64,000 nucleotides of DNA from Shigella phage vB_SsoM_113. Every line of letters starts with the position of its first letter. The first letter of the stretch is position 1. Below the pieces are notes generated by a model that was not told where the DNA came from, searched no databases, and was given only the letters and a program-made list of their open reading frames with translations. Below are positions 2,960-49,315 of this stretch, piece by piece. The position numbers and the translations under genes are program-made. Location: the sequence record LR746311. One strand, written 5' to 3'.

Positions 2960-2985
2960 CTATCTATTAACTAAGCGGAAAATTT

Positions 2986-4164
2986 ATGAGCACAGTTTTT
3001 AATACAAATCCAGTTGATGTTTTAAAAGAACCTATGTTCTTCGGTTCAGGTCTTGGTATTGCGCGTTATGATATTCAACGCCATAAAGTTTTTGAAGATT
3101 TAACCGAAAAGCAATTGTCATTTTTCTGGCGTCCTGAAGAAGTAAACTTGATGATGGATGCTGCACAATTTAACAAGCTTCCCCAGTATCAGCAAGATAT
3201 TTTTACTAATAACCTGAAGTATCAATCACTTTTGGATAGCATTCAGGGTCGTGCACCGTCTGCTGTACTTATGTCGTTAATTTCAGACCCAAGTCTTGAT
3301 ACATGGGTTGCTACATGGACTTTTAGTGAAACTATTCACAGCCGTTCATATACTCATATCATGCGAAATCTTTATACTGATCCGTCAAAGGTATTTGATG
3401 AGATTGTATTAGATAAAGCTATTATGAAACGTGCTGAATCTATTGGTCGTTATTATGATGATGTTATTGAGAAAACTCGTGAATGGGAAAACGCAAAAGA
3501 AATTTTTAGGTGTTTTTCAGAGAATGAATATGATTTGGACGCATATTCAAATAGCCTTATGCATGTAGAAGAATGCAAATACGAACTAATGCGTTCTCTT
3601 TACCTTTGTCTGCATGTAATCAACGCATTGGAAGCTATTCGTTTTTATGTATCTTTCGCATGTACCTTTAACTTCCATAAGAACATGGAAATCATGGAAG
3701 GTAATGCCAAGATTATGAAGTTCATTGCACGTGATGAGCAGCTTCACCTTAAAGGCACCCAATATATTATTCGTCAACTTCAACTTGGCACTGATGGTGA
3801 TGAATGGGTTAAAATCGCCCAAGAGTGTGAACAAGAAGCAGTTGATATTTTCATGGAAGTTAACCGTCAAGAAAAAGACTGGGCAGTTCATTTATTTAAA
3901 GATGGTGATGTTCCTGGATTAAATACAAATAGCATGTGGAGCTTTATTGATTACTTAACCGTATCTCGTATGAAACAGTGCGGTCTTCCATGCCCAATTA
4001 CCGATGCTCCGGTTAAACATCCGTATCCTTGGATTCGTGAATATCTTAATTCTGATAATGTTCAATCCGCGCCACAAGAAGTAGAACTGTCATCTTACCT
4101 TGTAGCACAGATTGATAATGATGTTGATGATAAAGTTATGATGAGTTTTAAAAAATATTTTTAA
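2986..4164 (+). CDS. nrdB: ribonucleotide reductase small subunit, uninterrupted (no intron)
   Basis: 392-aa continuous ORF; ATG 2986; follows nrdA after a 51-bp gap. Confidence 0.95.
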   Translation: MSTVFNTNPVDVLKEPMFFGSGLGIARYDIQRHKVFEDLTEKQLSFFWRPEEVNLMMDAAQFNKLPQYQQDIFTNNLKYQSLLDSIQGRAPSAVLMSLISDPSLDTWVATWTFSETIHSRSYTHIMRNLYTDPSKVFDEIVLDKAIMKRAESIGRYYDDVIEKTREWENAKEIFRCFSENEYDLDAYSNSLMHVEECKYELMRSLYLCLHVINALEAIRFYVSFACTFNFHKNMEIMEGNAKIMKFIARDEQLHLKGTQYIIRQLQLGTDGDEWVKIAQECEQEAVDIFMEVNRQEKDWAVHLFKDGDVPGLNTNSMWSFIDYLTVSRMKQCGLPCPITDAPVKHPYPWIREYLNSDNVQSAPQEVELSSYLVAQIDNDVDDKVMMSFKKYF

Positions 4165-4191
4165 GGAGTGGGCCGCAAGGCCCATTTTATT
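4163..4191 (+). terminator. GC hairpin GGGCC-GCAA-GGCCC plus U-rich tail between nrdB and denA (or split-SD element)
   Basis: AAGGAG 4163-4168; stem 4170-4174/4179-4183 with GNRA loop GCAA; ATTTTATT 4184-4191; denA ATG 4192. Confidence 0.5.
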
Positions 4192-5779
<1,588 letters not shown>

Positions 5780-30481: not shown

Positions 30482-31172
30482 ATAAATTAACTGTTTTTCT
30501 AAGTATTCTTAGTTTGTACATTGATAATCCAGTAGCTTTAGAAGCATCTTTCATACATTTATACTTAACACCATTTACTTCTATAGGTTTAGCAGCTGGG
30601 TTATTAGCTCCTGAATTATCTGGCATGTTATCTTTAATTTTCTGAATAGATTTAGCGGAATGCTTCCTTCCATACATGCCGTTATTTTTACCCGATTGAT
30701 TGATTGAATGTAATCTTTTAGCTTCTTCAGTCCATTTCGTTGGGTTCATTCTTTTAGTTTTACTAATTTTATTTCCCCATGTAATTGGACGGCTTTTCAT
30801 GAGTTTTGACATATATTGTTTATGTTCTTCCGTATGATGTTTTCCGTAAAATGGATTACCTTCGCCGGATTGAAGTTCTGCCATTTTACGACGTTCCCAT
30901 GCGTAAGATTTATTGACGTGTCTTTCATGAGTATTTGAATTCATTCCCATACATATAACGGCTTTAATTATACCGTAATGATTTGGATGAATTTTAGCTA
31001 AAAGTTTATGGGCTATAAAATGTTCTTCAGCCGTTAGTTCTACTAAATTACACTTATCATCTGTACCACCCATACATCTAGGAATTATATGATGAGTTTC
31101 AGTGTATCCATTAAGGCGAGCCCGATTCTGGGCTCTATTAATTAAATTATCATATATTAATTTATAATTCAA
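30480..31172 (-). CDS. HNH homing-endonuclease-like protein between uvsW and uvsW.1
   Basis: 230 aa; N-terminal HNH core THHIIPRCMGGTDDKCNLVELTAEEHFIAH; two NUMOD3-like repeats (GEGNPFYGKHHTEEHK, GKNNGMYGRKHSAKS); no ATG near N-terminus, candidate TTG start 31172-31170 overlapping uvsW TGA, GAGG 7 nt upstream. Confidence 0.8.
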   Translation of the reverse strand: MNYKLIYDNLINRAQNRARLNGYTETHHIIPRCMGGTDDKCNLVELTAEEHFIAHKLLAKIHPNHYGIIKAVICMGMNSNTHERHVNKSYAWERRKMAELQSGEGNPFYGKHHTEEHKQYMSKLMKSRPITWGNKISKTKRMNPTKWTEEAKRLHSINQSGKNNGMYGRKHSAKSIQKIKDNMPDNSGANNPAAKPIEVNGVKYKCMKDASKATGLSMYKLRILRKTVNL

Positions 31173-32680
31173 AGTTTAACCTCTTTCATCACATAATTAA
31201 ACTTTTCATCAGCATAACGCTGAATACGATCAAGTCCATGTTTTAAAAGATAGTTTAAATGCGAGTATTTTTTAGAAGATGTTTTTGATTTAGAAACTAC
31301 GCCCGCGTCATCTATAAGATCCCAGACCGTTGCGATTGTTTTAGAACCATGCTTACGTAATACGCGACCTATTGTTTGCAATACAATAATTTTAGATTTA
31401 ACACCGTGTGCTAAAACAACGTGATGCAGATTTTTAACTGAAATACCAGTAGAAAATACACCATAACTAGCTACTATAATTATTCCTTTACCGTTTTCAG
31501 CTAAGGTTTTCATTACATTGCGGGTTTCGGTATCAACTTCCCCTGATACGTAATAAACTTTATCGTATTCATTTTTAATTAAATCGAAAATAGCTTTACC
31601 GTGCGATACGTGTTTAAACATGACAAAAGCATTTTCATCTTTTTGCGCAAGCTTAATAGCTAATTTAGCGATCCATTTATTTCTTTTACTGAGCCCAGTA
31701 ATAATTTTTATTTCTTCTTGGTAAGTTTTTCCCTTTAATTTAGTAGTGAACTCATCGGGATAGCGAAGAAAAATACTATTAATTTTTAACTCAGTTACTT
31801 GTCCATCTTCCATTAATTTAGAGGTCGTTACTGGCTTAAATATTTCACCGAACATTCCAACATACTGCATGATATTAGCTTTGCCATCGCGCAATGAACC
31901 AGACAAACCAAATTTAAACATACAGTTATTTAAACCTGATATGATAGATGAAATACTTTTTCCTGTAGCAAGATGACATTCATCATTCATCATCATTCCA
32001 AACTGTGAGAACCATTCTTTTGGTTGTTTTACTACAGTTTGCCATGTACCAACAACGACTGGTGCATCATTTTTATATTTATCATCTTTTGATGCTCCAC
32101 CGCCGATTTTCTTTATCATTGCATGACTGAATAAACGATAGTCAACAAAGTCATCAGCCATCTGAGTTGTCAGAGCAGTTGTTGGAACAATGATAAGAAT
32201 TTTACCTTCATAATTTTCCAAATAATACCGAGCGAGCAAAGCTTGAATTAAAGATTTACCTGCGGATGTTGGAAGATTAAGAATTCTACGACGATTAACT
32301 AATCCTTCGAACACTGCATCTTTTTGATACCAATGCGGTTCAATTCTTTTATTTCCTGAATAGATTTCTAATTTAGAAAGCCATTCATCAAAATCTTTTC
32401 TTGATAATTCTTCTTTTTCGTTAATTTGCGGGTCAATCCAGGCTTTATAGCCAAAGTTATCACAGAACTTTTTAATTTGCCCGACTAAACCGAATGGAAG
32501 AAGGCGATTATAATCTAAAAGACGAATTCGTCCATCCCAGTGGCCATATTTGTATTTCGGATTAAAACGATACCCATCAGCTTCAAAGCTAAAGAAATCA
32601 CGGAGTTCATGAAATGTGCTTTCTTCACAATCAATTCTCACGTGACTAAAATCATAAAAATGTACTTTAATGTCAGTCAT
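31169..32680 (-). CDS. uvsW: UvsW SF2 helicase
   Basis: 503 aa; TSAGKS (motif I) and DECH (motif II). Confidence 0.95.
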   Translation of the reverse strand: MTDIKVHFYDFSHVRIDCEESTFHELRDFFSFEADGYRFNPKYKYGHWDGRIRLLDYNRLLPFGLVGQIKKFCDNFGYKAWIDPQINEKEELSRKDFDEWLSKLEIYSGNKRIEPHWYQKDAVFEGLVNRRRILNLPTSAGKSLIQALLARYYLENYEGKILIIVPTTALTTQMADDFVDYRLFSHAMIKKIGGGASKDDKYKNDAPVVVGTWQTVVKQPKEWFSQFGMMMNDECHLATGKSISSIISGLNNCMFKFGLSGSLRDGKANIMQYVGMFGEIFKPVTTSKLMEDGQVTELKINSIFLRYPDEFTTKLKGKTYQEEIKIITGLSKRNKWIAKLAIKLAQKDENAFVMFKHVSHGKAIFDLIKNEYDKVYYVSGEVDTETRNVMKTLAENGKGIIIVASYGVFSTGISVKNLHHVVLAHGVKSKIIVLQTIGRVLRKHGSKTIATVWDLIDDAGVVSKSKTSSKKYSHLNYLLKHGLDRIQRYADEKFNYVMKEVKL

Positions 32681-39966: not shown

Positions 39967-40600
39967 ACGCTTTTTTCATGGCCTCTGCGAGAGCCATATA
40001 GGCGTCATCGGCACTTGTATCGGCTTCCGCCGTCTGTGATTCGGTAATTTCCTTAGGAGTTACCCATGCATCTGGAGCACTTGGACCCCATACTGCATCA
40101 ACACCTACAGTTAATTTGAATCCTTCGTTTACGATACGATAACCTTTATTTGTGTCAGTCAATGAACCTAATCCACGAGAAGAAACTCCTGGAATCCATC
40201 CGGCACGAATATTAGCTGCTAATTTATCTCCAGGACCATGGTCACCTTCAATAACACGAGCTCGTCCGTATACGTCATTTCCTTTCCACCACATATCTTC
40301 TATAATGATAGCGGCTTGCATCGGGTCAACATTAGCGCGTGGAGGATGATTTAATTCTCCGAGAGCTTGTTTAGTTAAAACTTGCTCATTGATATAGTCT
40401 TTTACCGCTTTTTCTAATATGCGTTTTGGATAAAGACGTTTATTTCTATTGACGACTTCCGCTTGCATGAATATTCCTTCGATGTATAAACCGGGTTTTA
40501 AACCTAGGTCTTTTCCATCATGAGATTCAAGCATTGGCACGCCATCAATAATTTCGCCAGGTTGACCCCAAGTTTCAATTAGTAATTGGGGTTCATTCAT
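39962..40600 (-). CDS. 21: prohead protease
   Basis: 212 aa. Confidence 0.93.
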   Translation of the reverse strand: MNEPQLLIETWGQPGEIIDGVPMLESHDGKDLGLKPGLYIEGIFMQAEVVNRNKRLYPKRILEKAVKDYINEQVLTKQALGELNHPPRANVDPMQAAIIIEDMWWKGNDVYGRARVIEGDHGPGDKLAANIRAGWIPGVSSRGLGSLTDTNKGYRIVNEGFKLTVGVDAVWGPSAPDAWVTPKEITESQTAEADTSADDAYMALAEAMKKAL

Positions 40601-41025
40601 TAGCTTAATCCTAATGCTTTACGGCGTTTAAGAGCTTTTTTACGCTTACGCTGAGCACGAGATTGACCTGCTGGATTGGCAATCTTCGTTTTGGTAGCTT
40701 TGCGAGCAATTTGTCTACGTTTTGCTTTAGACAGCCCGGTGGTTTGAAATGCATTACGTTCACGCGTTTTGCGGTCTTTGGTACGTGTAATTTCACCACG
40801 AGCAGAAACATGTTTAACGATGAATTCATTTAGCGGCATATCTTCATTAATAGAAGCTAATGCAATTGCTAAATCAGTTTCATCATCAAGCATATTCTCG
40901 ACAATTGTATTTATATCGTCTTTATTTAAAGCAGAAGACAATTCGTCAAAGCGACCCTGTGCTTCAGGAATAAGTGCTTCGACATTCTCGAGAACTAATT
41001 CATGAGTTTCAGGGATCAGAAGCAT
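40600..41025 (-). CDS. 68: prohead core protein
   Basis: 141 aa. Confidence 0.8.
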
Positions 41026-41263
41026 TATTCATCATCCTCGTCTTCGTCATCTTCATCAGAGTCTTTGTCTTTTTTGTCGTCTTTATCATCACTATCTTCG
41101 TCATCCTCATCATCAGGTTCTTCACCTTCGATTAAGAAATTACGAGCGATAGCGATTTTTTCTTCTTTAATTAAATCAATCGTTCTTGCAGCCATGGCTT
41201 CAGCAAATAATTTACGAGCGGCTACGAGGTCGTTTGATTTAATAGCTTCAATTAAACCTTCCA

Positions 41264-41264
<1 letters not shown>
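41025..41264 (-). CDS. 67: prohead core protein with acidic C-terminal tract
   Basis: 79 aa; poly-D/E tail. Confidence 0.8.
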
Positions 41265-42889
<1,625 letters not shown>

Positions 42890-42921
42890 TTAAGCAGGAT
42901 GGGGATTTCTCCCCATTCATT

Positions 42922-43413
42922 TTATTCCCAATAATCGAGAGCGAGAGTTACTTCAAAGGTTTGGATTTCATTGTTTGAATCCCAATCTAATTGAAGTTCA
43001 CCCACGTTAGTAGGCCACAGGCCTTTAATTTCGACTTCTTTTGTTACAGTTTTAGCATCACGAGCATATTGGCGAACAACAGCGCTCTTTTTATACTCTG
43101 CTGGTTTTCCACCAGTAATTTCGTTCCCTTGCCCAGCAGCAATGCTTTGCCAATCAACAAACTTCTGGCGAGCATCATGTGCCTCATCGTTCATTACCGT
43201 AACAGTCCAGTCATCGAATGTACGATCGCCTGCTACGTTAATTTTACGGTTCATAAAACCGACTGGAATTTTTTCTACAATACCAGCTGGTAAAGCAGTG
43301 GCTTTACATTGAAACGTAAAATTTTGTCCAAGATAAGAAATTTCTACTTGGAATAAGTTAGGTCGAGCAAAATCACCAGATTCAAACGCTCGTGTTACAT
43401 CATCTACAAACAT
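42922..43413 (-). CDS. 19: tail tube protein
   Basis: 163 aa. Confidence 0.95.
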   Translation of the reverse strand: MFVDDVTRAFESGDFARPNLFQVEISYLGQNFTFQCKATALPAGIVEKIPVGFMNRKINVAGDRTFDDWTVTVMNDEAHDARQKFVDWQSIAAGQGNEITGGKPAEYKKSAVVRQYARDAKTVTKEVEIKGLWPTNVGELQLDWDSNNEIQTFEVTLALDYWE

Positions 43414-43427
43414 ATTAGCCTCTGTAG

Positions 43428-43435
43428 TATTTATA
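43428..43435 (-). promoter_or_regulatory. late promoter TATAAATA for gene 19 (proximal)
   Basis: Reverse complement of TATTTATA; 15 nt upstream of gene 19 ATG. Confidence 0.6.
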
Positions 43436-43486
43436 TCCCTATGTTTAACCTAGGGCATATAGAATTAAAGAATTAAGGATATAGTG

Positions 43487-43494
43487 TATTTATA
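43487..43494 (-). promoter_or_regulatory. second late promoter TATAAATA (distal), next to HNH cassette
   Basis: Same GTATTTATAT context as proximal box; immediately downstream (on - strand) of hairpin 43496-43513. Confidence 0.5.
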
Positions 43495-43495
43495 T

Positions 43496-43513
43496 GGCCT
43501 GCCGAAACAGGCC
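43496..43513 (-). other. hairpin GGCCTG-(6 nt)-CAGGCC following HNH ORF stop
   Basis: Perfect 6-bp GC stem 7 nt downstream of HNH stop; no U-tract. Confidence 0.4.
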
Positions 43514-43520
43514 TTTAGAA

Positions 43521-44162
43521 TCATTCTAGTAAATCCCAAAGATCTACGCTATTTCTTTTTGACTTTTCTCGGTTAGATTCCCAAGTGATTATTTCTAAAT
43601 TTTTTACGCTTGCTATAATTTCCGGCGGAATTAAATTATCAAATCCATATTTGATAGATACTTTATGATCAAGTTGGTAAGCACCTTCTACGCCGCACAC
43701 TCCTATTTTATCAGCATTCGGCCATTTTGACCAAATTTTTCTTATTTTAGCTGACTTAGTTATAGAATGAACTCTACTAGCATATAATGCAAACTCTTTT
43801 CTTTTACCAGTCCATCGAGGATGTTTATCGCCTCTTTGCCATGGTCTGCTTATTCCAGATTGAACTTCCGAATTTTTAATAGCAACCTGTTTAATGCTAC
43901 ATTTTCTACATGCATGTGTGGGTGTTCTATTTAAAAGCTGAATGCTTCTACTAAATTTAATACCACACAAATCACATTTAGCGTCAACTATTTTATTACT
44001 ATTCTTTGGCATTAATTCTATTGGAACAGATATTGTATCATGATATGATACTTTATATCCCAGAATTGTCGACCACATTTTTGAATGATTTCTTGGTTTT
44101 ATTGTAACAAACTTAGAAATAATCACTTGTTTCCTCGAGAATAGGGGGCCGAAGCCCCACAA
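43521..44162 (-). CDS. HNH endonuclease-like protein with N-terminal CxxC...CxxC, between genes 18 and 19
   Basis: C-terminal HNH-like core YQLDHKVSIKYGFDNLIPPEIIASVKNLEIITWESNREK; start uncertain: TTG 44162, GTG 44126 (GAGGA 5 nt upstream) or ATG 44078. Confidence 0.7.
   Translation of the reverse strand: MWGFGPLFSRKQVIISKFVTIKPRNHSKMWSTILGYKVSYHDTISVPIELMPKNSNKIVDAKCDLCGIKFSRSIQLLNRTPTHACRKCSIKQVAIKNSEVQSGISRPWQRGDKHPRWTGKRKEFALYASRVHSITKSAKIRKIWSKWPNADKIGVCGVEGAYQLDHKVSIKYGFDNLIPPEIIASVKNLEIITWESNREKSKRNSVDLWDLLE
44145..44158 (-). other. tetraloop hairpin GGGGC-UUCG-GCCCC (on - strand) after gene 18
   Basis: Just downstream of gene 18 stop and inside the 5' end of the maximal HNH ORF. 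Confidence 0.45.
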
Positions 44163-44166
44163 TCAA

Positions 44167-46146
44167 TTAACCTGCAAGACCAGTTAACTCATCGAAATCT
44201 GCACCAGTAGCAGTTGCGACGAAATTAAGTTGGATATAATTTATACTACGAGCCGGTTGAATGTAGAATGTTGCAACAAACTCATTTCTATCAATTACTG
44301 ACGGAGTGTTATTTGTTGTATCGCAAACTACACGATATTCATAAATTCCACCGAGAGCTTTAATTCCCTGTAAGTATTGGGCAGTTTCTGTGCGGAATGA
44401 TGAACGAGTAAACGCGTTGTTTAATTCGAACAAACGATATTTTGAACTACGTCCGATATTCGTTTTCAACATATTAAACAGACGACGAACGTTAATACGA
44501 TCAAATGGAGAAGGAACAGAAGTAGCTGTTTTATCACCATACAGTACGTAACCATCACCACCTGTACCAGTTACTGGGTTGATAGCTTCTTGATATAAAC
44601 GGTCGCGCTGAGCTTGGCGAGTTTCAATAGCAAGTTTAATAACGTTAAGAATCTGGCCACGATTATAACCAGCTGGAGACATCCAAGTCTGAGAAACGTT
44701 ATCAGTTCTCGCGCATAAACCAGCAATATCAGCTGCTAATGGAACCCAACGATTCACATCATTATATTTGTCATACTGATACTTGTAGTTACCATCGATT
44801 GCTGCATAGGTTGAACTGATATTAAAGTTATTATCAGTGTATGAACCTGCTGCGGTTCTCCAATTGACTAAGTTATCAACAGCGCGAGTTACAGGAATTC
44901 CAACTACAGTTTCGCGCGGCGGTGAGCACAGTACTAGGCAATCTTGGCGAGCATCTCCAATTGAAACGACGTGTTTTTGGACAGTAGATGCTGTTTCTAA
45001 AGATTCACCGGCACAAGAACCCGCAATAAACAACTGAACGTCAACAGATTCGCGGTCAGCAAAGAAGTCCCAAGCTTCCATCAAATCTCCTGCTGTTACT
45101 TCAGCATTTGATGATAATCCACCAGACAGAGTTAAAATTCCAGAGAAGCCTTCTGGCCAGTTTTGCGCAGTTGCGAAAATATATTCTGAACCACCTTTTG
45201 CGAAAAAGTCATCAATATAGATGTTACTATCGTAAATATCTTTTTCACCTCGCTTTGTCGAAAGAACAACGCTTTGAACAATAGCATCGTTGCGACGAAC
45301 TATAATAGCGTATTGTGAATCAGTTTGTGGTCCATATCCAAACACTGCTTTGGCAGTAGATGCGCGTGTTCCGCCACCTGGATAAATTGGAAGTAATGCA
45401 GAAGCACCTTTTGCGTAGTCAGCTTTAGATACGATTTCAATTTCGATTTTATCGCCCAACTCGCCTGGATAAAGAGCTACTACTCCAGGAATTCCATATT
45501 TTTCGAGATTTGCCTGAAAGTCAACAGCTGTCATAGCAGCTTCGGCATTTTCAATTTCAGCTAATAAAATACCAGAATCAGTAATAATTTTTCCAAGAGT
45601 TATTACTGCAGCTAAACCAGAGGAAGACGAAGAAATTTCCGCGGTCCAATTAGAACCTAATGCTGGATATTCGCCTACTTCTTTTGCTTTAGCGATAATT
45701 TTTGCGGTAGGAATATTAATTTTCTTAATTTTTCCATCAGCATCTACTTCGGTAACTTTACATTCTGTTTCAACATCTTCTGAAACATACTTAACCGTGA
45801 TTTTATCTCCAACCGCGTAGTTACTACCTGGGGTAGAAATAGTGTATTCAATATTACCGGCAATCGGAGATGAGTTTTTAGCGGTATCTCTATCGACAGC
45901 ACGCACGACTCGCAAATCATTTCCATATTGTAAGAAATTCATTGCAGACATAAAATAGTCAGCAGTTTCAGCTGTAGGTTGACCAAAAGTATTAACTAAA
46001 TCTACTTCATTTGTAACCTGTTTAATTTGAAAAGCAGGACCCCACTGGAATTTACCGGCCAAAGCTGCTGTACCAGTAGAGTTATTAACCACGGTGCTTT
46101 GAACCGTAGTTTCTTTGAGCTCAATGCCCGGAGATAATAAAGTCAT
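44167..46146 (-). CDS. 18: tail sheath protein
   Basis: 659 aa. Confidence 0.97.
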   Translation of the reverse strand: MTLLSPGIELKETTVQSTVVNNSTGTAALAGKFQWGPAFQIKQVTNEVDLVNTFGQPTAETADYFMSAMNFLQYGNDLRVVRAVDRDTAKNSSPIAGNIEYTISTPGSNYAVGDKITVKYVSEDVETECKVTEVDADGKIKKINIPTAKIIAKAKEVGEYPALGSNWTAEISSSSSGLAAVITLGKIITDSGILLAEIENAEAAMTAVDFQANLEKYGIPGVVALYPGELGDKIEIEIVSKADYAKGASALLPIYPGGGTRASTAKAVFGYGPQTDSQYAIIVRRNDAIVQSVVLSTKRGEKDIYDSNIYIDDFFAKGGSEYIFATAQNWPEGFSGILTLSGGLSSNAEVTAGDLMEAWDFFADRESVDVQLFIAGSCAGESLETASTVQKHVVSIGDARQDCLVLCSPPRETVVGIPVTRAVDNLVNWRTAAGSYTDNNFNISSTYAAIDGNYKYQYDKYNDVNRWVPLAADIAGLCARTDNVSQTWMSPAGYNRGQILNVIKLAIETRQAQRDRLYQEAINPVTGTGGDGYVLYGDKTATSVPSPFDRINVRRLFNMLKTNIGRSSKYRLFELNNAFTRSSFRTETAQYLQGIKALGGIYEYRVVCDTTNNTPSVIDRNEFVATFYIQPARSINYIQLNFVATATGADFDELTGLAG

Positions 46147-46174
46147 TTTTAATCCTCTTTAATATGCTTTAATA

Positions 46175-49315
<3,141 letters not shown>

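Follow-up and report, generated by a model that had tools for sequence, protein, structure and literature searches.

A 646-bp cassette between the tail sheath and tail tube genes of T6-like phages probably carries a freestanding homing endonuclease gene of an HNH-like family

The window analysed here is a stretch of 64,000 nucleotides (nt) from Shigella phage vB_SsoM_113 (sequence record LR746311), in which a small open frame lies between gene 18 and gene 19, the genes for the tail sheath and the tail tube, respectively. All features of this locus are on the minus strand, in the order gene 17 (46178-48010; large terminase), gene 18, an open frame of 213 codons, gene 19, and gene 20. Judged by its sequence, the window belongs to a T6-like Tequatrovirus, with an identity over 1 kb of 99.6% to phage WL-3 and of 98.8% to T6 and PST. 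A sequence-only reading of the window had placed an open reading frame (ORF), two UUCG hairpins, and two TATAAATA late promoters at this junction, and all of them are present at those positions (Table 1). Here, we report that the ORF is likely a freestanding homing endonuclease gene of an uncharacterised HNH-like family, carried on a minimal cassette of 646 bp.

Boundaries of the cassette and the gene 19 control region

The boundaries were obtained by aligning the occupied junctions of the window, T6, RB6, and ADUt with the empty junctions of T4 and RB14. The insert starts with the first base past the gene 18 TAA and ends with the TGA of the ORF, and it stands in place of 8 to 9 nt of the T4 empty site (TACGGTGCA; TACGGTGC(A)). 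On the 3' side of the insert, T4 and RB14 match the window base for base through the GC hairpin, both late promoters, and the gene 19 leader (100 nt). By this alignment, the cassette is an insert with the gene 18 stop codon on one side and the native gene 18 hairpin on the other. Comparison of the junction across T-even phages, which had been proposed as a check on the suggested insertion, thus bore it out: among about 498 Tequatrovirus records, the junction is occupied in 116 and empty in 382, with flanks that are otherwise nearly identical, and the cassette is missing from most relatives.

The two late promoters of gene 19 had been taken for a duplication left behind by repair of the insertion. 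This explanation is ruled out, because the insert-less T4 and RB14 have an identical leader, with both promoters and the GC hairpin unchanged; the promoters are therefore not insertion scars, and together with the GC hairpin they represent the ancestral gene 18-19 intergenic region. The ATATAAATAC context common to both promoters overlaps the TATAAATA motif itself. Only 12 copies of TATAAATA are found on the minus strand of the window, and those within 40000-48500 lie upstream of late genes. The description of the cassette as flanked by hairpins held on one side only: the upstream UUCG hairpin is borne by the cassette, whereas the downstream one is the native gene 18 hairpin. Intrinsic termination was considered for both hairpins and rejected, because neither, including that of the cassette, is followed by a T-run on its 3' side. 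At the same place as the cassette hairpin, S16 has GGGCCTTCGGGCCC and PKO111 has another hairpin. No excess of sigma-70-like promoters was found.

The start codon had been read as ambiguous between TTG 44162, GTG 44126, and ATG 44078. All three codons exist, but every homologue supports GTG 44126. All homologues begin with MII(S/T/D)K at this position, GTG is also the start here in S16 and PKO111, and the T6 protein is annotated from the same GTG. GAGGA lies 5 nt upstream of this codon, in a start region 40 nt after gene 18. The upstream in-frame extension begins with TTG 44162 in the window and with ATG in T6, and its frame differs between phages; because a 1-nt indel shifts the frame relative to T6, the extension, which runs across the hairpin, is not conserved as protein. 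A start at ATG 44078 would drop 16 conserved residues. On these sequence comparisons, the start is GTG 44126 and the product has 201 amino acids (aa). The suggestion that translation of the ORF is coupled to that of gene 18 is likewise not supported, because the two are 40 nt apart and this interval contains a hairpin and a Shine-Dalgarno sequence that belongs to the ORF itself. In the predicted RNA fold, GAGGA and GTG are unpaired (z = -0.17). Compared with T6, RB6, and ADUt, the window has an extra C on the 3' side of the UUCG hairpin (44144-44158).

Table 1. Features of the gene 18-19 junction, in coordinates of the window
Feature	Position	Strand	Remarks
Gene 18 (tail sheath)	44167-46146	-	Upstream neighbour, presumed target gene; TAA at 44169-44167
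Gene 18 3'-end substitution patch	44218-44250	-	Codons for RSINYIQLNFV; ATA-AAT-TAT at 44244-44236
Whole cassette, 646 bp	43521-44166	-	Hairpin, ribosome-binding site, ORF, and stop; from alignment of occupied and empty junctions
Open frame, 213 codons	43521-44162	-	Contains KCDLCG...ACRKCS and DHKVSIKYGFDN...NLEIITWESNREK
Cassette hairpin GGGGC-UUCG-GCCCC	44145-44158	-	Directly 3' of gene 18 stop; missing at empty sites
Shine-Dalgarno GAGGA (44136-44132) and GTG start (44126-44124)	44124-44136	-	Same GTG in T6, RB6, ADUt, S16, and PKO111
Cassette ORF, 201 aa and stop	43521-44126	-	Putative freestanding homing endonuclease; equivalent to T6ORF160
CxxC...CxxC zinc finger (C51, C54, C73, C76)	43899-43976	-	Inside N-terminal domain (residues 1-97), presumed DNA-binding
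C-terminal HNH-like nuclease domain (predicted)	43524-43835	-	Residues 98-201
Native gene 18 hairpin GGCCUG(U)-UUCG-(G)CAGGCC	43496-43513	-	Outside cassette; identical in T4 and RB14
Distal gene 19 late promoter TATAAATA	43487-43494	-	Native, outside cassette; identical in T4 and RB14; predicted late promoter in fPS-65 annotation
Proximal gene 19 late promoter TATAAATA	43428-43435	-	Native, outside cassette; identical in T4 and RB14
Gene 19 (tail tube)	42922-43413	-	ATG at 43413

A two-domain protein with a predicted HNH-type core

The product of the cassette ORF is 99% identical to the T6 protein, and homologous proteins of approximately 200 aa form 47 clusters, in none of which, except for one chimera, is there a precomputed Pfam domain. 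Across 44 homologues, C51, C54, C73, G99, W105, Q151, D153, H154, S157, G161, N176, L177, W182, N185, R186, and K188 are invariant, and C76 is nearly so. AlphaFold models are confident (predicted local distance difference test score, 87-88) and show two domains with a beta-beta-alpha core. This core has, in the model, the beta-beta-alpha-metal layout together with the elements of the catalytic motif: the predicted strand beta1 (150-154) ends at the D-H pair (D153-H154), an Asn (N176) precedes beta2 (177-181), and the helix (182-188) bears a further Asn (N185). The best structural matches of the C-terminal domain are Gme HNH (PDB 4h9d) and GVE2 HNH (PDB 5h0o), small HNH nicking enzymes.

In a set of 56 diverse C-terminal domains, the only invariant columns are D, H, N, and N. 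The Pfam families that recur among these domains are headed by HNH_4 (6 domains; best E value, 6.5e-5) and HNH (4), both below threshold, and GH-E (2), each of them of HNH type, and the sole other family matched by more than one of them is DUF7034 (3). HNH_4, the Cas9 HNH type, is the commonest weak Pfam match among the homologues, and the Gme HNH, GVE2 HNH, and Cas9 HNH domains have the D-H...N...N(R.K) layout in common with the C-terminal domain of the cassette protein. The HNH-like core that had been recognised at the C-terminus is supported by the invariant D-H...N...N on the predicted beta-beta-alpha core and by the weak HNH-type Pfam matches of the homologues, and the predicted fold is nuclease-like rather than the non-nuclease fold that the sequence-only reading had named as speaking against it. 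From the models, the C-terminus is probably an HNH-type (beta-beta-alpha-metal) nuclease domain, although the evidence from sequence is weaker than that from the fold. The N-terminal domain weakly resembles the treble-clef zinc fingers of DUF4379 in 15 of the 44 members, and its fold matches are to DUF4379 mitoribosomal proteins. Matches to PHROG homing endonucleases are weak only and confined to the zinc finger.

The C-terminal domain is reused in many other proteins. A profile of the domain matched 4044 clusters at 50% identity, 1400 at E <= 1e-10, and Pfam has no model of its own for this family. Its N-terminal partners in a sample of 63 proteins include DUF7487, homeodomain-like and resolvase helix-turn-helix (HTH) modules (HTH_23/HTH_7/HTH_38), NUMOD3, sigma-70 region 4, and ANT, which are the kinds of DNA-binding module found in homing endonucleases.

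A paralogue of the cassette gene elsewhere in the window was considered and rejected, as none was found. The window does contain another endonuclease-type ORF (30483-31175, minus strand; 231 aa) with two NUMOD3 motifs and an HNH-like motif, THHIIPRCMGG; this is presumably the ORF that the sequence-only reading had counted as the first of its HNH-type ORFs. On the plus strand, a 145-aa stop-to-stop open frame with a GIY-YIG domain (4165-4599) adjoins the RNA ligase 1 gene (4541-5776). It sits directly after an open frame of 397 codons (2971-4161), which is separated by approximately 40 nt from an open frame of 756 codons (664-2931).

Distribution of the cassette and a codon patch in gene 18

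The cassette is polymorphic in two genera. The occupied Tequatrovirus junctions carry either a T6-type allele (69 records) or an RB6-type allele (48 records), and among Klebsiella Jiaodavirus records 40 of 178 are occupied. Comparison of PKO111 (occupied) with KPV15 (empty) places the insert between the gene 18 stop and the native hairpin of Jiaodavirus, with the TGA of the ORF abutting the hairpin. By tblastn, the family is present in 239 phage records, and a homologue lies directly 3' of gene 18 in Gelderlandvirus S16, Jiaodavirus PKO111, Acinetobacter phage AbTZA1, Winklervirus CHI14, and Sinorhizobium phiM12; the homologue in phiM12 is followed by a gene other than gp19. In IMG/VR, where few Tequatroviruses are present, 26 of the 40 loci that match the N-terminal domain follow a recognisable gene 18 end, versus 8 of the 35 that match the C-terminal domain alone.

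The position of the ORF relative to the gene 19 late promoter differs between phages. In the window, S16, and PKO111, the cassette lies upstream of the promoter and has a hairpin and a GTG start. In AbTZA1 (L008, 2950-3600) and CHI14 (L009, 2900-3690), the ORF lies downstream of the late promoter, 9 or 3 nt from gene 19; because the ORF is situated between promoter and gene, gene 19 would need to share a transcript with it, which is not so in the window. The TATAAATA of AbTZA1 is located inside a hairpin.

A cassette with this distribution could also be an ancestral accessory gene of the gene 18-19 module, inherited vertically and lost many times, with the nuclease-like domain serving a phage function such as DNA processing or late gene regulation. 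In line with this, gene 18 is immediately followed by a member of the family in five genera and in Sinorhizobium phiM12, and the identity of the ORF falls from 51% to 37% as that of gp18 falls from 77% to 38%, a rough scaling. Several observations argue against it. Presence and absence are precise in both genera, within flanks that are 95-99% identical, and the insertion offset varies within one intergenic region. The T6-type and RB6-type alleles are nearly the same at the 5' end and over the last ~75 codons, and their C-terminal domains are 75% identical, whereas the RB6-type N-terminal domain, in a nearly identical Tequatrovirus background, is only 39% identical to that of the T6-type and is closer to those of other genera (58% to S16 and 55% to PKO111). 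Farther than about 100 bp away, occupied genomes resemble the window no more than empty ones do, and they resemble one another no more than they resemble empty ones. Furthermore, a pseudogenised copy exists: in Escherichia phage Pu-Krd-SF2 (L018, 3174-3790), a T6-type copy has a premature stop at codon 89 and, from its sequence, looks like a decaying cassette. The shuffled alleles, the decayed copy, the differing offsets, and flanks that are not co-inherited therefore favour a mobile, recombining element over plain vertical inheritance with loss, which we regard as unlikely.

The native hairpin of Pu-Krd-SF2 also carries a G-to-A change, and 2 nt are inserted at its proximal late promoter. Records mostly label the gene "hypothetical protein", and a few label it homing endonuclease, HNH endonuclease, or type II restriction endonuclease; "putative head morphogenesis protein" and "holin" are further labels at the locus. 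Two records, MG010123.1 (32 kb, "Staphylococcus phage SAJK-IND") and OR584013.1 ("Pseudomonas phage PsgM02F"), contain a near-identical Tequatrovirus gene 18 and cassette, and their host labels look doubtful.

The gene 18 flank of the cassette bears a dense patch of substitutions. Relative to the window, the empty genomes of T4, RB32, fPS-65, and PhiZZ30 have 11 to 13 differences within 33 to 35 nt, located 50-85 nt upstream of the gene 18 stop codon. These changes extend over 11 consecutive codons and, with a single exception (Q/T), are synonymous. In four of five empty genomes, but not in occupied T6-type genomes, the patch is the densest 35-nt stretch of differences in the 3.1 kb upstream. 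T6-type carriers have the haplotype of the window, and RB6-type carriers are intermediate. In Tequatrovirus records, sequences of the final 120 nt of gene 18 form at least four haplotype classes (T6-like, RB6-like, T2-like, and T4-like), whose identity to the window varies between 87.6% and 100% and whose differences cluster in the 33-nt patch; the INPHARED haplotype frequencies are bounds taken from identity bands.

The patch encodes PARSINYIxLNFVA, which is nearly invariant in the gp18 of about 80 diverse loci. Its codons switch from ATT/ATC-AAC-TAC in empty genomes to ATA-AAT-TAT in carriers, and the same switch recurs in the clade of S16/PKO111 versus KPV15 and in a third clade, so that it is found within three separate clades in all. 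Among dereplicated loci, ATA-AAT-TWT is present at 13 of 29 occupied versus 4 of 53 empty sites (Fisher P value of 1.3e-4, in a test that ignores phylogeny). Copies inserted farther downstream, of the CHI14 type, retain empty-type codons. On these sequence patterns, the patch is a candidate for the recognition site or for an immunity site, or else for a short tract of co-conversion. The motif TATAAATT at 44238-44245 within the patch was considered as a dedicated late promoter and rejected; the carriers S16 and PKO111 have GATAAATT there, and because they share the codon triplet and not the promoter, a promoter role for TATAAATT is unlikely.

A putative selfish element and its alternatives

We regard the cassette as very probably a selfish homing endonuclease gene, of a type that is commonplace in T4-type phages. 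Its transcription would depend on read-through past the non-terminating hairpin from the late promoter of gene 18 (TATAAATA at 46175), and its translation, from the GTG start, would be at a low level. During mixed infection, the protein would bind DNA via its zinc-finger N-terminal domain and nick or cut cassette-less genomes in the part of gene 18 that codes for PARSINYIxLNF, about 50-85 nt upstream of the stop. In the ensuing recombinational repair, the carrier genome would serve as the template, and the cassette would be copied, along with the neighbouring gene 18 codons, into the genome that was cut, while the synonymous ATA-AAT-TAT patch would protect carriers. Because gene 19 retains its two native late promoters, the insertion may be nearly neutral, at low cost to the phage.

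Nuclease activity and homing are themselves predictions from sequences and structural models, and a number of results weigh against this interpretation. The window protein has no HNH match in Pfam or NCBIfam (NCBIfam gave nothing); hidden Markov model searches of PDB sequences, with the single sequence and with a profile, returned only chance matches to C2H2 zinc-finger, ribosomal zinc-ribbon, and leucine-rich-repeat proteins; Foldseek against the PDB gave nothing significant; and an hhalign comparison with the NUMOD3/HNH-type ORF of the window was not significant (probability, 0.1). The core is also without the usual zinc-binding cysteines of HNH domains. A fixed position after gene 18 over large distances is expected from vertical inheritance with repeated loss as well. 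With regard to the codon patch, RB14, L023, and ~20 other empty genomes bear the carrier-type haplotype, approximately half of the occupied clades are without ATA-AAT-TWT, and tight physical linkage alone would yield some association between patch and occupancy.

As unlikely, in our view, as vertical inheritance with loss is a domesticated nuclease kept for its benefit to the phage in phage-phage competition or defence, for example by cutting relatives or satellites that co-infect the cell. Some 69 T6-type genomes have an intact ORF that is 97.5-99.5% conserved, the predicted catalytic residues are invariant across the family, and there is precedent in the literature for homing endonucleases that raise competitiveness or are domesticated (PMC13096335, PMC10448857). 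The sequence offers nothing to tell such a nuclease apart from ordinary homing; 77% of Tequatroviruses do without the gene, and decayed copies exist.

The remaining two explanations are both very improbable. A terminase-associated HNH protein that aids DNA packaging, as in HK97-type phages, would agree with Gme HNH and GVE2 HNH as the best structural matches and with the location of the terminase gene ~2 kb away, but T4 and most relatives package normally without the gene, the T4-type terminase has its own nuclease, and the zinc-finger N-terminal domain and the partners of the homologues (NUMOD3, HTH) are typical of site-specific homing enzymes. A non-catalytic, zinc-finger nucleic-acid-binding protein with a superficial likeness to HNH would fit the lack of significant Pfam, PDB-sequence, and Foldseek matches of the window protein to HNH, and is set against the nuclease-like predicted fold described above.

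A freestanding homing endonuclease gene at this junction would resemble the T-even freestanding HNH homing endonucleases (T4 MobA-MobE; I-HmuI/I-TevIII type), which are well known as a kind (PMC2988022, PMC2993671). Like the cassette gene, these are intergenic between conserved essential genes and sporadic in close relatives, combine a nuclease with a DNA-binding module, and have minimal regulation, with a hairpin near the ribosome-binding site; the mechanism expected for both is that a conserved gene nearby is nicked or cut and that the endonuclease gene is then copied in by recombination (PMC2988022). According to the same source, Mob proteins consist of an HNH domain followed by a C-terminal region, a description that sets apart the cassette protein, in which the order is reversed, with the zinc finger N-terminal and the nuclease C-terminal. 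The N-terminal HNH, C-terminal DNA-binding region, and Mob/I-TevIII-like sequence of the Mob family were not found in the cassette protein, in a comparison made with the ORF at 30483-31175 rather than with T4 Mob sequences.

The predicted genetics are also like those of SegF and SegG, GIY-YIG enzymes of intronless homing, with a distant cut in a conserved neighbour, co-conversion of the flank, and clustered substitutions in carriers (PMC2993671, PMC2988022). These enzymes differ in belonging to another nuclease superfamily, and while SegF and SegG show localised marker exclusion, the likeness of the cassette to them is predicted from its sequence. Hef of phage U5 is, like the cassette gene, a T-even-type freestanding homing endonuclease that is neither Seg nor Mob; it is of a Vsr-like (EDxHD) family (PMC3239194), whereas the cassette protein has HNH-type matches and is unrelated, with no Vsr-like matches. 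The T4 insertion sites listed by PMC2988022 do not include 18/19, and Petrov 2010 lists one "other HNH" for T6 with no position given; no passage on an 18/19 endonuclease was found in the papers that were searched. The kind of element is already known, and the additional interest, which is modest, lies in the cross-genus association with gene 18, the candidate immunity codons, and the size of a domain family that has not been modelled.

Tentatively, the homing endonuclease reading may be extended to an old, site-faithful HNH-like lineage that tracks the 3' end of gene 18 across Straboviridae and phiM12-type phages. Its site would lie in the DNA encoding PARSINYIxLNF, the immunity codons ATA-AAT-TAT would have converged across genera, and zinc-finger N-terminal domains would have been swapped to re-target the enzyme. 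Although it is possible rather than probable, such a lineage would provide a natural, multi-genus model of the co-evolution of an endonuclease with its target and would define a large nuclease domain family of about 4000 clusters at 50% identity that is without a Pfam model.

In T4-type phages, freestanding homing endonucleases are a driving force of mosaicism and of marker exclusion, and those characterised cluster at nucleotide-metabolism genes and a few others. The gene described here is present in T6, a classic phage, and in about one in four of the Tequatroviruses sequenced. If it is active, the junction of tail sheath and tail tube would join the list of homing sites, the hypervariable synonymous patch in an otherwise conserved structural gene would be accounted for, and a large HNH-superfamily branch, so far unmodelled and combined with many DNA-binding modules, would be defined. 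In practical terms, such a gene would bear on the outcome of recombination in cocktails of therapeutic T4-like phages.

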